A stretch of DNA of 58,036 nt from Sphingomonadales bacterium (GTDB lineage: Bacteria > Pseudomonadota > Alphaproteobacteria > Sphingomonadales > Sphingomonadaceae), in contig JBBQTM010000001.1 of NCBI GenBank assembly GCA_038234545.1, positions 1-58,036 of the forward strand, in the 5' to 3' direction. This document shows positions 32,892-36,886 of the stretch, in pieces. The number at the start of each line of letters is the position of its first letter. The stretch's first letter is position 1. The translations under genes and the position numbers were made by a program. Under the pieces are notes generated by a model that searched no databases, had not been told where the DNA came from, and worked only from the letters and a program-made list of their open reading frames with translations.

Positions 32892-32955
32892 TTCATTCCC
32901 CCAATTCCCCGAGCGGGAGCGTAGCTTCTTCGAGAGGGCGTGCAAGTCTTAGCTT

Positions 32956-33067
32956 CTCCCCCTTCTCAGGGGGAGGTGGCGCGAAGCGTCGGAGGGGGCG
33001 GTGCGGTCAAGGAAGGGCCCCCTCCCGTCAGCTGCGCTGACACCTCCCCCAGGGAATTCTGGGGGAG
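32956..33067. repeat. Inverted pair of REP-like palindromic units between the M48 gene and pepN
   Basis: CTCCCCCT-TCTC-AGGGGGAGGTGGCGCGAAGCGTCGGAGGGGG (32956-32998) and inverted CCCCCTCCCGTCAGCTGCGCTGACACCTCCCCCAG-GGAATT-CTGGGGGAG (33018-33067). Confidence 0.8.
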
Positions 33068-33114
33068 TGGCTGGCTATATTGCGCCCTGGGGCTGCCTTC
33101 CCTAGCAGACCTCC

Positions 33115-35715
33115 ATGGACGCACGATTGAACCCCGAAGCTCCGACCAGTCCGGAGCATATTGCCACTCTCCGCTCGGACTATCGCCCGCCCGATTTCTG
33201 GGTGCGCGAGGTGACGCTGGATGTCGCGCTCGATCCGGCGGCGACGCGGGTTCGATCGACGCTCCGCGTTGAGCGAAATGGGACACACGAGCGGCCGCTC
33301 CGGCTTGCCGGTGACGGGCTGACCCCGCTCACCGTGCGCGTCGATGGCGCGGAAGCCACTTGGCGCATGGAAGACGGCACATTGGTGGTCGCGATCGACG
33401 GCGCAACAGCCTCGGTCGAAACCGAGGTCGAGATTGCGCCGGAGGCCAACAGCCAGTTGATGGGGCTTTATGCATCGGGCGGCATATTATGCACGCAATG
33501 CGAGAGCGAGGGCTTTCGCCGCATCACCTTCCACCCCGACCGGCCTGATGTGCTGTCTATTTATTCGGTGCGTATGCAGGCCGACAAGGCACGTTTCCCG
33601 ATCCTACTGGCCAATGGTAATTTGACCGATAGCGGTGACGGGGCTGACGGAAGCCACTGGGCGCAGTGGCACGATCCTTTTCCCAAGCCATCCTATCTGT
33701 TCGCGATGGTTGCGGGCGACCTGGCCGCCAACCGCGACAGCTTCACGACGATAAGCGGGCGCAAGGTCGACCTGGCGATCTGGGTGCGCGAGCAGGATTT
33801 GCCGCGCACCGCGCATGCCATGGCGAGCCTGAAGCAGGCGATGGCGTGGGACGAAACCGCCTACGGCCGCGAATATGACCTCGACCTGTTCAATATCGTC
33901 GCGGTTGATGATTTCAATTTTGGGGCGATGGAAAATAAGGGGCTCAACGTCTTCAACTCGCGCTACATCTTGGCCGACCAAGAGACCGCTACCGACGCCG
34001 ACTTCGATGCCATCGCGGGCGTGGTCGCGCACGAATATTTCCACAATTGGTCGGGCAATCGGGTGACCTGCCGCGACTGGTTCCAGCTGAGCCTGAAGGA
34101 AGGCTTCACCGTCTTTCGTGACCAATGCTTCTCGGCCGATATCGGGTCACAGGCGGTCCAGCGGATCGACGATGTGCGGCTGCTTCGCGCGGCTCAGTTC
34201 CCCGAAGATGCGGGACCGCTGGCGCATCCGGTGCGGCCCGACTCCTATCTGGAGATCACCAATTTCTACACCGCGACGGTCTATAACAAGGGTGCCGAGC
34301 TGATCCGGATGATGCGCACGATGCTGGGCGCGGGGCCGTTTCGCGCCGGGGCCGACCTGTACTTCGAGCGGCATGACGGCGAGGCGGCGACGTGCGACGA
34401 TTTCGTCAAGGCGATGGAGGACGCCAGCGGGGCCGATCTGTCGCGGTTCAAGCGCTGGTATGAGCAGGCGGGGACACCGCGGGTCACCGCAAAGCTGGTG
34501 CATGACGCGACCGCGCGGACTGCCAGGCTGCATCTAGCGCAATCGATGCCGCCGACACCGGGGCAGCCCGACAAGCAGCCGATGCAGATACCGCTCGTGA
34601 CGGCGTTGATCGGGGCGACAAGCGGAGCGGAAATCGCGCAGGAACGGCTGGTGGTGCTCGTCGGGCCGGAAATGTCGGTGACGTTCGACGACGTGGACGA
34701 GACTCCTTTATTGTCGATCAATCGTGGCTTTTCGGCGCCGGTGATCCTGGATGTCGAGCGGGGGGCGGGGGAACTCGAGCGGCTGGCGCAGTGCGATCGC
34801 GATCCGTTTGCACGCTACGAGGCGCTGCAAGAACTGATGTTCACCGCGCTAATCGCGGGGGCGTCGGGTCACGGCGCCGATCAAGCGGCGGTGATTGCGG
34901 CGATGCGCGATACGCTGACCTCCAATGAGCTCGATGCGGCCTACAGGGGCGAGGCGCTGACTTTGCCGTCGGAGGCGTTGGTCGGCGACCGGATGGACCT
35001 GGTGGATCCCGATGCGATCCATTCCAGCCGTGAGACGTTGCGCGCGGCGATCGGGCAGGCGCTGGCGCGCGAGCTTGGCGAGGCGCAGGCGGCCAATGCA
35101 CCGGGCGGCGATCTGTCGAGAGCGGCCAAGGGCGTGCGGCGGCTGAAAACGGTCGCGCTGGCGTTGATCGCGGCGGGGGATCCGGCGAAAGGCGCGGCGC
35201 TGGCGAAGGCGCAATATGATGCGGCGGACAATATGACCGACCGGCAGGGCGCGCTGGCGGTGCTGACGATGATCGACGGGCCGGAGCGGTCGGCGGCGCT
35301 GGACGATTTCTACCGCCGCTTCGCCCATGATCCGCTGGTGGTCGACAAATGGTTCGCGTTGCAGGCCGGGGCGCCGCGGGCCGACACGATCGACACCGTC
35401 GAGGCGCTGTTGAAGCATCCCGATTTCACCATGAAGAACCCCAACCGCCTGCGCGCGGTCGCGGGGAATTTCGCCGCGGGGCAGTGGGTGTTTCACGGAC
35501 AGAACGGGCGCGGATACCGGTTGCTGGCCGACCTGATCATCGCCGCCGACGCGATCAATCCCCAGACCGCCGCGCGGCTGGTGCCCCCGCTGGGGCGGTG
35601 GCGGCGGTTCGGCGAGGATCGCGCGAGCCTGATGCGCGGGGAGCTGGAGCGGGTGCTGGCGACGCCGGGGGTGAGCAAGGATGTGTACGAGCAGGCGAGC
35701 AAGAGCCTGGGGTAA
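33115..35715 (+). CDS. pepN: Aminopeptidase N
   Basis: TQCESEGFRRIT, DPFPKPSYLFA, GAMENKGLN, HEYFHNWSGNRVTCRDWFQLSLKEG, NFYTATVYNKGAE. Confidence 0.97.
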   Translation: MDARLNPEAPTSPEHIATLRSDYRPPDFWVREVTLDVALDPAATRVRSTLRVERNGTHERPLRLAGDGLTPLTVRVDGAEATWRMEDGTLVVAIDGATASVETEVEIAPEANSQLMGLYASGGILCTQCESEGFRRITFHPDRPDVLSIYSVRMQADKARFPILLANGNLTDSGDGADGSHWAQWHDPFPKPSYLFAMVAGDLAANRDSFTTISGRKVDLAIWVREQDLPRTAHAMASLKQAMAWDETAYGREYDLDLFNIVAVDDFNFGAMENKGLNVFNSRYILADQETATDADFDAIAGVVAHEYFHNWSGNRVTCRDWFQLSLKEGFTVFRDQCFSADIGSQAVQRIDDVRLLRAAQFPEDAGPLAHPVRPDSYLEITNFYTATVYNKGAELIRMMRTMLGAGPFRAGADLYFERHDGEAATCDDFVKAMEDASGADLSRFKRWYEQAGTPRVTAKLVHDATARTARLHLAQSMPPTPGQPDKQPMQIPLVTALIGATSGAEIAQERLVVLVGPEMSVTFDDVDETPLLSINRGFSAPVILDVERGAGELERLAQCDRDPFARYEALQELMFTALIAGASGHGADQAAVIAAMRDTLTSNELDAAYRGEALTLPSEALVGDRMDLVDPDAIHSSRETLRAAIGQALARELGEAQAANAPGGDLSRAAKGVRRLKTVALALIAAGDPAKGAALAKAQYDAADNMTDRQGALAVLTMIDGPERSAALDDFYRRFAHDPLVVDKWFALQAGAPRADTIDTVEALLKHPDFTMKNPNRLRAVAGNFAAGQWVFHGQNGRGYRLLADLIIAADAINPQTAARLVPPLGRWRRFGEDRASLMRGELERVLATPGVSKDVYEQASKSLG

Positions 35716-35735: not shown

Positions 35736-35838
35736 CCCTCACCCAACCCTCTCCCGTAAGGACGGGAGAGGGCTAGGAAGGGCCGGCCTCGTTTTCTTCT
35801 CCCTCTCCCGTGCTTACGGGAGAGGGTATGGGTGAGGG
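35736..35838. repeat. Inverted pair of about 38-nt REP-like units on the 3' side of the DUF559 gene
   Basis: CCCTCACCCAACCCTCTCCCGT-AAGG-ACGGGAGAGGG (35736-35772), 28-nt spacer, inverted copy 35801-35838. Confidence 0.92.
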
Positions 35839-36177
35839 TTCTTCTTCCCCCTGCAAGATTATCAGGATCGACCGCAGCACGCCGTCGGTATTCTGCAATA
35901 TCTCATTGTTCCAGAACCGAACTACGCGAAACCCGCGCGATTGGAGCCAGGCAGTTCGGGCGGCGTCCGCCTCAGGGGAATGCTGACCGCCGTCGGCCTC
36001 GACGATCAGCTTAGCGTCAATGCACAGAAAATCGACGATGTAGGGGCCGACCGTGGCTTGGCGGCGGAATTTTGCGTTGGCGAGTTGACGTGCGCGCAGG
36101 CGGTGCCAGAGGCGCTGTTCGGCGTCGGTGGAGTCGCGGCGAAGGCGGCGCGCGTGCGGGTTGGTCTTGCCGATCAA
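35773..36177 (-). CDS. DUF559 (Vsr/PD-(D/E)XK-like) endonuclease-domain protein
   Basis: ARRLRRDSTDAEQRLWHRLR, KFRRQ..GPYIVDF, LIVEADGGQH, D..RT.WL...GFRVVRFWNNEI; start uncertain (TTG 36177 chosen). Confidence 0.88.
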   Translation of the reverse strand: MIGKTNPHARRLRRDSTDAEQRLWHRLRARQLANAKFRRQATVGPYIVDFLCIDAKLIVEADGGQHSPEADAARTAWLQSRGFRVVRFWNNEILQNTDGVLRSILIILQGEEEPSPIPSPVSTGEGEENEAGPS

Positions 36178-36187
36178 GGGAAAAGGG

Positions 36188-36289
36188 CCCTCACCCCGAC
36201 CCTCTCCCGTAAGGACGGGAGAGGGGGAAGATGGTAGGGCGACCACTTTAGCCCTCTCCCGTTCTTCACGGGAGAGGGTTGGGTGAGGG
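36188..36289. repeat. Inverted pair of about 38-nt REP-like units on the 5' side of the DUF559 gene
   Basis: CCCTCACCCCGACCCTCTCCCGT-AAGG-ACGGGAGAGGG (36188-36225), 26-nt spacer, inverted copy 36252-36289. Confidence 0.92.
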
Positions 36290-36298
36290 TTCTTTCGC

Positions 36299-36886
36299 TT
36301 AGCCCCCGATCCACCTCGCCACTTCGACCGCGACCTGGTTGGCCGCCTGGTTGAGCGCCGGGCCGACCGTGGCGGCGGTGCCGTCGGCGGGGATTTTGGC
36401 TTCGAAGCGGCGGGTTTCGACGCGGGTGCCGCCAGCGGTGGCGAGCGCGCCGTCGTAGCGGACGATGACCACGCCTTCCGCGGTGTCATAGCCGAAGCGG
36501 GTCAGCGTCCCGGTCAGCTTGAGACCCGGATCGAGGCTCGCCTGGCGCGGGTCGAGAACGACGCGGTTGGTGGTTCGGACGGTGGTTTCCTGGAGCAGAT
36601 CCTGGAACAATTTGTCGGGCGCATCGACCCATTGCAAATCCTGGACATAGGCCACCGCGGTGGGGCCGACGAGGGCGGGGACGCGGGTCGTTGCAAGCTC
36701 CTTGGGGATTACCGGCACGTCGATGGTGACTGCCTCGCCCGGCGCGGCGATGCGGCTGATCGCGGCTGGCGCGGGCGCGCTGCTGGTGAGGGTGAGCAGG
36801 GTCGGCGGGACCTTCTTGCCGCCGAAGCAGGCGCCCAGCGAAAGCAAAGCAGCGGCGACGAGGATCAGGCGGCTGTTACGCATCAT
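36299..36886 (-). CDS. ABC-type transport auxiliary lipoprotein (PqiC-like)
   Basis: Lipobox LGAC; QWVDAP motif; last gene of the MCE operon. Confidence 0.85.
   Translation of the reverse strand: MMRNSRLILVAAALLSLGACFGGKKVPPTLLTLTSSAPAPAAISRIAAPGEAVTIDVPVIPKELATTRVPALVGPTAVAYVQDLQWVDAPDKLFQDLLQETTVRTTNRVVLDPRQASLDPGLKLTGTLTRFGYDTAEGVVIVRYDGALATAGGTRVETRRFEAKIPADGTAATVGPALNQAANQVAVEVARWIGG

Follow-up and report, generated by a model that had tools for sequence, protein, structure and literature searches.

The window analysed here, a stretch of 58 kb, contains four 37-38-nt repeat arms that surround a gene for a 134-aa DUF559 (PF04480) protein as two inverted pairs. The gene lies on the minus strand (35773..36177), running from a predicted TTG start at 36177 to a stop at 35773, and its product retains an intact Vsr/EDxHD-like catalytic set, E-D-E-D-H-D. 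The outer arm on the pepN side, arm 1 (35736..35772, plus strand), consists of the third-strand complement CCCTCACCC followed by an 11-bp hairpin with an AAGG loop. The 28-nt spacer of this doublet (35773..35800) contains the final codons and stop of the ORF, which is translated through the inner arm 2 (35801..35838, minus strand) as PSPIPSPVSTGEG. On the other side, the G-rich third strand of the inner arm 3 (36188..36225, plus strand) is a likely ribosome-binding site, its GGTGAGGG lying ten nt ahead of the TTG, and a 26-nt spacer (36226..36251) separates it from the outer arm 4 (36252..36289, minus strand). The 554-nt unit occupies a 583-nt gap between the convergent stops of two host genes that lie outside the element: pepN, encoding an M1 aminopeptidase (33115..35715, plus strand), and an ABC_trans_aux lipoprotein gene at the end of an Mla-type operon (36299..36886, minus strand, in the same orientation as the DUF559 gene).

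The stems CCCTCTCCCGT/ACGGGAGAGGG are invariant across the four arms, the loops vary (AAGG, GCTT, AAGG and TCTTC on the plus strand) and the heads are separated from the stems by 2-3 nt. This head-plus-stem pattern occurs four times in the 58-kb window and was absent from 100 shuffles of it; each doublet folds as a long hairpin, with z about -11 to -12.5. The earlier note had described just this four-unit, gap-filling layout, with an ORF that reads through one repeat and may draw its Shine-Dalgarno sequence from another, and its description is borne out in these respects. The locus is no assembly artefact, since independent soil metagenome contigs span the same junctions with few differences (pepN to arm in X1 and X2, arm to lipoprotein gene in X2), one run being possibly the source of the window itself. 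A promoter scan of the locus returned nothing and the one terminator-like site is what shuffled sequence also yields; the upstream arm provides the likely ribosome-binding site, and the gene is probably transcribed with the host operon. Rfam gave only sub-threshold hairpin matches, and PADLOC found no defence system at the locus. Just upstream of pepN, at 32953-33072, we also noticed a gene-less doublet of a different arm class, termed clade I below (CCCCCTT..AGGGGGAGGTG..hairpin..GGAGGGG), in cassette polarity, so that two different arm subtypes flank pepN.

The protein matches the DUF559 profile over positions 4-108 of 109 with 137.5 bits (E=2e-40; curated cut-off 20.6 bits), while its match to NCBIfam PRK09767 falls below that model's cut-off. 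It matches PDB 3hrl by sequence, and a fold search with the predicted model (pLDDT 91) returned 3hrl (TM 0.80), I-Bth0305I (0.70) and Vsr (0.54). Among the 85 DUF559 proteins compared within the genus the catalytic positions are invariant, except that the first Glu is present in 84, and dN/dS among the genes is about 0.04-0.13. A start lies in frame within 12 nt of an arm G run at 49/84 loci, against 12/168 off-frame, and the DUF559 frame extends into the downstream arm at 70/83. Seven loci (L135, L141, L145, L148, L180, L188 and L209) have DUF559 cores inside open frames of 400-1,350 aa, several of them with arms, which suggests in-frame insertion into host genes.

The pairing of gene and arms extends well beyond this locus. 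All five DUF559 genes of this genome lie inside inverted arms, and every pair is a separate subtype. In the genus, in which one unpublished genome (G020) forms one row of the tallies, 38 of 61 genomes have a DUF559 match, or 36 once two with weak matches in long frames (G002 and G022) are set to zero; weak partial matches were dropped in G051 and G057. Inverted arm pairs flank 87 of the 91 scored genus loci (three of 94, under 60 bits, were omitted); of 81 distal controls, one reaches the score of 34 applied to both. For the 80 closest GTDB homologues, whose record titles include Dehalococcoidia, Planctomycetota, Nitrospirota and Omnitrophota and whose loci range in GC from 0.42 to 0.70, the corresponding figures are 65 of 76 scored loci, including one N-run artefact and one different, AT-rich repeat, and 0 of 72 controls. 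In another alphaproteobacterial family paired arms were found at 27/30 loci (control 0/30), and in a phylum-wide draw at only 14/29. Homologues thus generally carry such flanks, as the reading in the earlier note requires.

The basic unit of the family is nevertheless not the pair of inverted doublets that the note had taken it to be. It consists of the gene with one arm at either end, each arm turning its hairpin outwards and its third strand towards the gene; at the present locus this canonical cassette spans 35801-36225, with arm 2 as its downstream and arm 3 as its upstream end, and one outer arm has been added per side. Outer arms on both sides were called at about 2 of 85 loci by a noisy arm-arrangement caller. 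The present locus is an ordinary family member with two extra arms, which would have joined the site later. The layout of two outward doublets also fits the junctions of an integrated circle, but the mosaic make-up of the four arms gives this idea no preference over insertion into a pre-existing doublet. Genomes of the genus carry up to eight divergent DUF559 copies, each with its own arm type, and the gene-less doublets of this genome mostly (about 17) have cassette polarity and resemble internal-deletion derivatives (the two doublets at this locus and one at C14, wrongly parsed by the census, were read by eye). The repeat is thus dispersed, as anticipated, but the window's exact subtype recurs in only one further doublet of the genome, a number unlike that of REPs.

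On sequence grounds the arms are classed as a variant of the BoxC/PIT/TM intrastrand-triplex motif, and not as the REP-like elements proposed earlier. On the purine strand each arm reads as a C-rich stem, a loop, a G-rich stem, a short loop and a second G-rich run, and in all four CCCTCTCCC, GGGAGAGGG and GGGTGAGGG stand in the mirror relation that characterises the class. Every one of the four arms has three 9-nt stems that fit the TMECO consensus of Holder et al. (2015, PMC4666352), and the BoxC/PIT/TM elements described there are likewise intergenic, often in inverted pairs and patchy among relatives. The strict consensus, with a first loop of 3-6 nt and a second of 3 nt, is not matched: on the TMECO pattern the first loop is 8-9 nt in all four arms, because the stem is longer by 2 bp, and the second is 2-3 nt (2 nt in two of them). 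The available text of that paper reports that TMECO oligonucleotides form an intrastrand triplex in vitro, that a stable triplex was undetected in vivo or in duplex DNA, that a purine-motif triplex is unable to form in RNA, and that PIT elements showed neither promoter nor terminator activity; it names no partner enzyme (the word "nuclease" has 0 occurrences) and found no link to mobile elements.

Comparative evidence for the fold comes from the dispersed repeats themselves. Among the 301 of 368 stems that have a G-rich run downstream, the third run mirrors the purine strand of the stem perfectly in 265, a count not readable as a probability given the kinship of the loci, while 500 shuffles gave a mean of 120.5 and a maximum of 140. 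The two parts change together: GGAGAGG is found with GG(T/A)GAGG in 117/121 cases, GGGAGGG with GGG(T/A)GGG in 36/38 and GGAGAAG with GATGAGG in 16/18. In the 142 asymmetric stems, where the two can be told apart, 111 agree with the mirror relation and 65 with the direct one. That stem and third run change in step suggests that selection acts on single-stranded DNA folded as three strands, and hence that bacteria select for an intramolecular DNA triplex. The conserved structure would accordingly be this fold and not just the hairpin of the earlier note.

Arm type follows protein type, as the earlier note had proposed should be looked for. A protein tree of 85 intact cores splits with 100/100 support into groups of 41 and 44 rows with different arm classes, GGTGGAGGGG or GACGGAGGGG in one and GGGTGAGGG or GGGGTGGG in the other, which includes the window gene (the automatic arm classifier got L085 and L095 wrong and gave no class to 16 upstream arms). 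Protein and arm similarity are correlated across one locus per genus site plus outside loci (Mantel rho 0.53, n=116; 0/999 permutations) and inside the window's clade (rho 0.27, n=96; 0/999 permutations). Relatedness among loci and genomes means that these p-values overstate, and shared descent accounts for part of the co-variation, since the paralogues are not recent and nearest neighbours are often same-site orthologues. Two observations separate gene from place. At one and the same site three genomes have a clade I gene and two have clade II genes, at three loci, and each clade keeps its own arms there, so that arms track the gene and not the place; and named Sphingobium homologues have arms near-identical to those of the window at unrelated sites.

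The dispersed arms also go with the presence of the gene in the genome. One arm pattern has 460 matches in the 36 DUF559-positive genomes versus 8 in the 25 negative ones, and the window's arm type 101 versus 9; the scarcity in negative genomes persists among those at least 90% complete. The positive genomes are not one clade, because DUF559 presence needs six changes on a 23-genome host tree, a number as low as which was reached in 92 of 500 shuffles. At the level of whole genomes the clade specificity of arms is imperfect: of 11 genomes in which only clade II was found, three (62-79% complete) hold 11-24 clade-I arms.

At the pepN-lipoprotein junction the cassette is an insertion in this lineage, and the gap is a recurrent landing place. 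DUF559 is absent downstream of the lipoprotein gene in all 22 other genus genomes that have this gene (L007-L028), as the note's comparison of relatives would require, and in 21 of them pepN lies within 1.5 kb of it. Eight relatives have an empty junction, with the two stops no more than 11 nt apart, and others have small genes or at least two other palindrome families there. Across the genus, 85 loci are spread over about 41 sites. Direct repeats of at least 6 nt outside the arms were seen at 9 of 90 cassettes, where shuffles predict about 5, so that the target duplication typical of a DDE insertion sequence or MITE shows no excess among what are mostly old insertions. Filled and empty hrpB-mrcB alleles of Escherichia coli likewise have no target duplication and imprecise junctions, and no clean joint across the cassette, as expected of a strain-level empty site, was present in the contigs of four metagenome runs. 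The cassette is no fast transposon: we found no recent paralogues, the best same-genome pair at different sites being 74% identical, and the nearest neighbours of 53 of the 85 loci are same-site orthologues, from which we conclude that movement is slow and inheritance mostly vertical.

The closest known system is the Ssn nuclease with its NTS/SRM repeats (Chenal et al. 2025, PMC11893778), a single-domain enzyme of about 100 aa, without a transposase, whose genes are flanked by their own palindromic repeats, which are also dispersed and vary with the homologue in a layout that its authors noted to be IS-like. The earlier note knew of no established mechanism for such a unit; a nuclease other than a transposase lying within its own repeats had in fact already been published. 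Ssn and DUF559 loci share the combination of a small single-domain gene with its own dispersed palindromic flanks. They differ in that Ssn is a GIY-YIG protein (cd10448) and the window protein a Vsr/EDxHD-like PD-(D/E)XK one, and in that SRMs are simple hairpins whereas arms of the window type co-vary as triplexes. Ssn has been shown to cut single-stranded DNA a few bases from its repeat; for DUF559 arms cutting is predicted. DUF559 is absent from the main text of that paper. As a separate observation, the genome under study holds two small GIY-YIG genes (L288, G000:C14:15694-15906; L289, C16:13622-13834), one with an internal TAG, within inverted palindromes of a GTTCGTCCTGAGC..GTCGAAGG-like family in an Ssn-like layout, so that both nuclease-plus-repeat architectures coexist here; the same family occupies the pepN-lipoprotein junction in G016 (L008).

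We would also distinguish the cassette from two better-known systems. RAYTs with their REPs and REPINs (Bertels et al. 2017, PMC5581495) likewise combine cognate palindromes and dispersed gene-less doublets co-occurring with the enzyme, mostly vertical inheritance and no recent duplication; a RAYT, however, is an HUH Y1 transposase, typically one per genome, whereas DUF559 is present in 0-8 divergent copies with few to tens of arms. The EDxHD homing endonuclease I-Bth0305I (Taylor et al. 2011, PMC3239194) has the same E-D-H-D set and, as noted, a similar Vsr-like fold, but the window gene encodes a 134-aa single domain without its N-terminal NUMOD region, is intergenic, and belongs to a family spread over about 41 sites in place of a conserved host-gene site with an intron or intein. 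By the features tested, the DUF559 cassette is not a member of the Ssn, RAYT or EDxHD homing families. What appears to be new is the nuclease-plus-cognate-repeat pairing of DUF559 with BoxC/TM arms; the repeat class itself was already known. We found no paper linking DUF559 to BoxC/TM repeats, a point on which subscription journals and some supplements may bear.

Since DUF559 relatives in many bacteria each come with a repeat version that matches them, the enzyme is likely what recognises, cuts and slowly spreads those repeats. On the strength of the Ssn analogy, the intact catalytic residues and the triplex co-variation, we think it rather probable that the small, stand-alone DUF559 protein is a nuclease whose target is its cognate arm, folded as single-stranded DNA into a triplex of hairpin and third strand, and that it nicks the DNA next to this fold; it would work much as Ssn and RAYT systems do, with a Vsr/EDxHD fold instead. 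The protein would cut arms that become exposed on incoming DNA or the lagging strand, freeing arm-bounded single-stranded pieces, mostly gene-less doublets and rarely a whole cassette, and host repair would put these back, imprecisely and with no target duplication, into gaps between genes. Thereafter the gene would be long kept, mostly by descent, with the upstream arm providing its ribosome-binding site and the host operon probably its transcription. For the whole chain, from nicking to the spread of doublets and cassettes by host repair, we would claim a credible case with somewhat less than even chances. We know of no strand-transfer step for PD-(D/E)XK enzymes. A wider proposal, in which stand-alone DUF559 proteins form a second, fold-unrelated family of triplex-reading ssDNA nucleases that, alone and transposase-free, propagate BoxC/TM repeats and cassette with the aid of host repair, YcjD and VsrA being decaying or domesticated members, is offered tentatively and may well prove too broad.

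These two proteins lie at loci that lack the upstream arm. The E. coli gene ycjD, present in 3,378 of 5,426 genomes, carries an arm downstream, oriented as in the cassette; one strain has it intact, whereas in K-12 it has decayed. TMECO counts were 23 and 16 in two ycjD-positive chromosomes and 2 and 6 in two negative ones, these four, out of ten chromosomes intended, being a very small sample. The ycjD-less alleles hold other genes and so offer no clean empty site. At the hrpB-mrcB position E. coli NT1F31 has a TM doublet other than that of K-12, with the arm types swapped (L287 vs L276), apparently an independent insertion or an inversion.

The Caulobacter protein VsrA (CCNA_02930; Matthey et al. 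2026, PMC12907096) has a DUF559 domain with catalytic residue spacing identical to that of the window protein and is needed for the SOS response of cells without the cytosine methyltransferase ScmA. Its authors propose a very-short-patch T:G repair enzyme while calling the activity uncharacterised. The work does show that a member of the DUF559 family is able to cause DNA damage in vivo, an effect modulated by methylation in a way that the proposed model leaves unexplained. Repeats go unmentioned in the text available ("palindrom" has 0 occurrences), yet the published vsrA primers put the end of the reading frame inside an arm of a downstream doublet, and the 23-nt motif at that end recurs as a dispersed arm core in one genus, where 18 of 101 genomes contain it. 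A locus matching these primers (L275, G529:C18:53900-55500) has a LexA box and a downstream doublet only, and its frame also ends inside an arm. The box sits just before a plausible later start codon and may thus be an ordinary upstream operator, not an intragenic one. In the supplement of the same paper, the primer NM222 for the imuA SOS reporter holds an arm-like hairpin, CCTCCCCCCAAGGGGGAGG, so that an arm may lie at that reporter locus too.

VsrA is the natural starting point for the view that DUF559 is a host Vsr-like mismatch-repair or damage-response nuclease and that the repeats are independent insertions or passive companions. Its catalytic spacing and its SOS phenotype, the LexA box and missing upstream arm of the locus matching its primers, and the purifying selection and vertical inheritance of the family at large would all agree with such a role. 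We nonetheless consider it improbable. The activity of VsrA is uncharacterised by its authors' own account and the vsrA frame itself finishes within an arm; a perfect LexA box precedes only 3 of 192 loci; in the genus of the window, C5 methyltransferases do not follow the distribution of DUF559 (8/36 positive vs 6/25 negative genomes), the neighbours of the window gene being pepN and the lipoprotein gene; and up to eight divergent copies per genome with their own arm types, together with the near-absence of arms where the gene is missing, are hard to reconcile with passive companionship. That the arms are RNA or expression signals only, such as ribosome-binding sites and stabilising hairpins co-inherited with the gene and not its substrate, we regard as very improbable. 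The Shine-Dalgarno-like run supplied by the upstream arm and the entry of the frame into the downstream arm speak for it at the frequencies given above, but it leaves the inverted symmetry and the dozens of gene-less copies unexplained, as it does the mirror co-variation, the purine-motif triplex being excluded in RNA and PIT elements being without promoter or terminator activity according to Holder et al. (PMC4666352).

Movement could also be owed to another enzyme altogether. The arms might belong to a non-autonomous element as its ends, with an ordinary transposase (Y1/RAYT, IS200, ISL3 or other) moving it in trans and DUF559 serving as a TnpB-like or homing helper; by cutting empty or donor sites, it would let repair restore the cassette. 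The IS-like inverted ends, the MITE-like gene-less derivatives and the repeated use of the same intergenic site would be explained in this way, and the nearest characterised fold is that of a homing endonuclease, I-Bth0305I. We think it unlikely all the same. Our screen covered the Y1 and ISL3 families: this genome, 63% complete, yielded neither a Y1 (PF01797) nor an ISL3 transposase, in keeping with the earlier note's description of a unit without a transposase, and Y1_Tnp occurs in 4 of 61 genus genomes, with none of its 5 loci flanked by arms. Target duplications show no excess, the protein is without the N-terminal DNA-binding region of I-Bth0305I, and the insertion sites are about 41 unrelated gaps. 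The Y1 genes of the four genomes (L291-L295) have short tandem units at their flanks instead, for instance GTCACCGTAAT or GTCCCCGGAATT.

If DUF559 proteins do act on their arms, the pairing would join two orphans: the BoxC/PIT/TM repeats, known since the 1990s and present in E. coli K-12, to which neither an enzyme nor an origin had been assigned, and DUF559/YcjD, which has had a crystal structure and no substrate. It yields a direct substrate prediction with built-in specificity controls, the clade-matched arms, and offers an alternative reading of the VsrA phenotype. Should the Ssn analogy hold, the family would provide a new set of ssDNA nucleases of about 110 residues that are both sequence- and structure-specific. 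In a Legionella anisa record (L220), a search of 200 nt on either side of the gene placed DUF559 within a long AT-rich inverted repeat (score 252) unlike the triplex arms. In a table of PMC9881135, DUF559 genes are enriched among predicted inversion targets (odds ratio 14.3), an enrichment that may reflect the arms.
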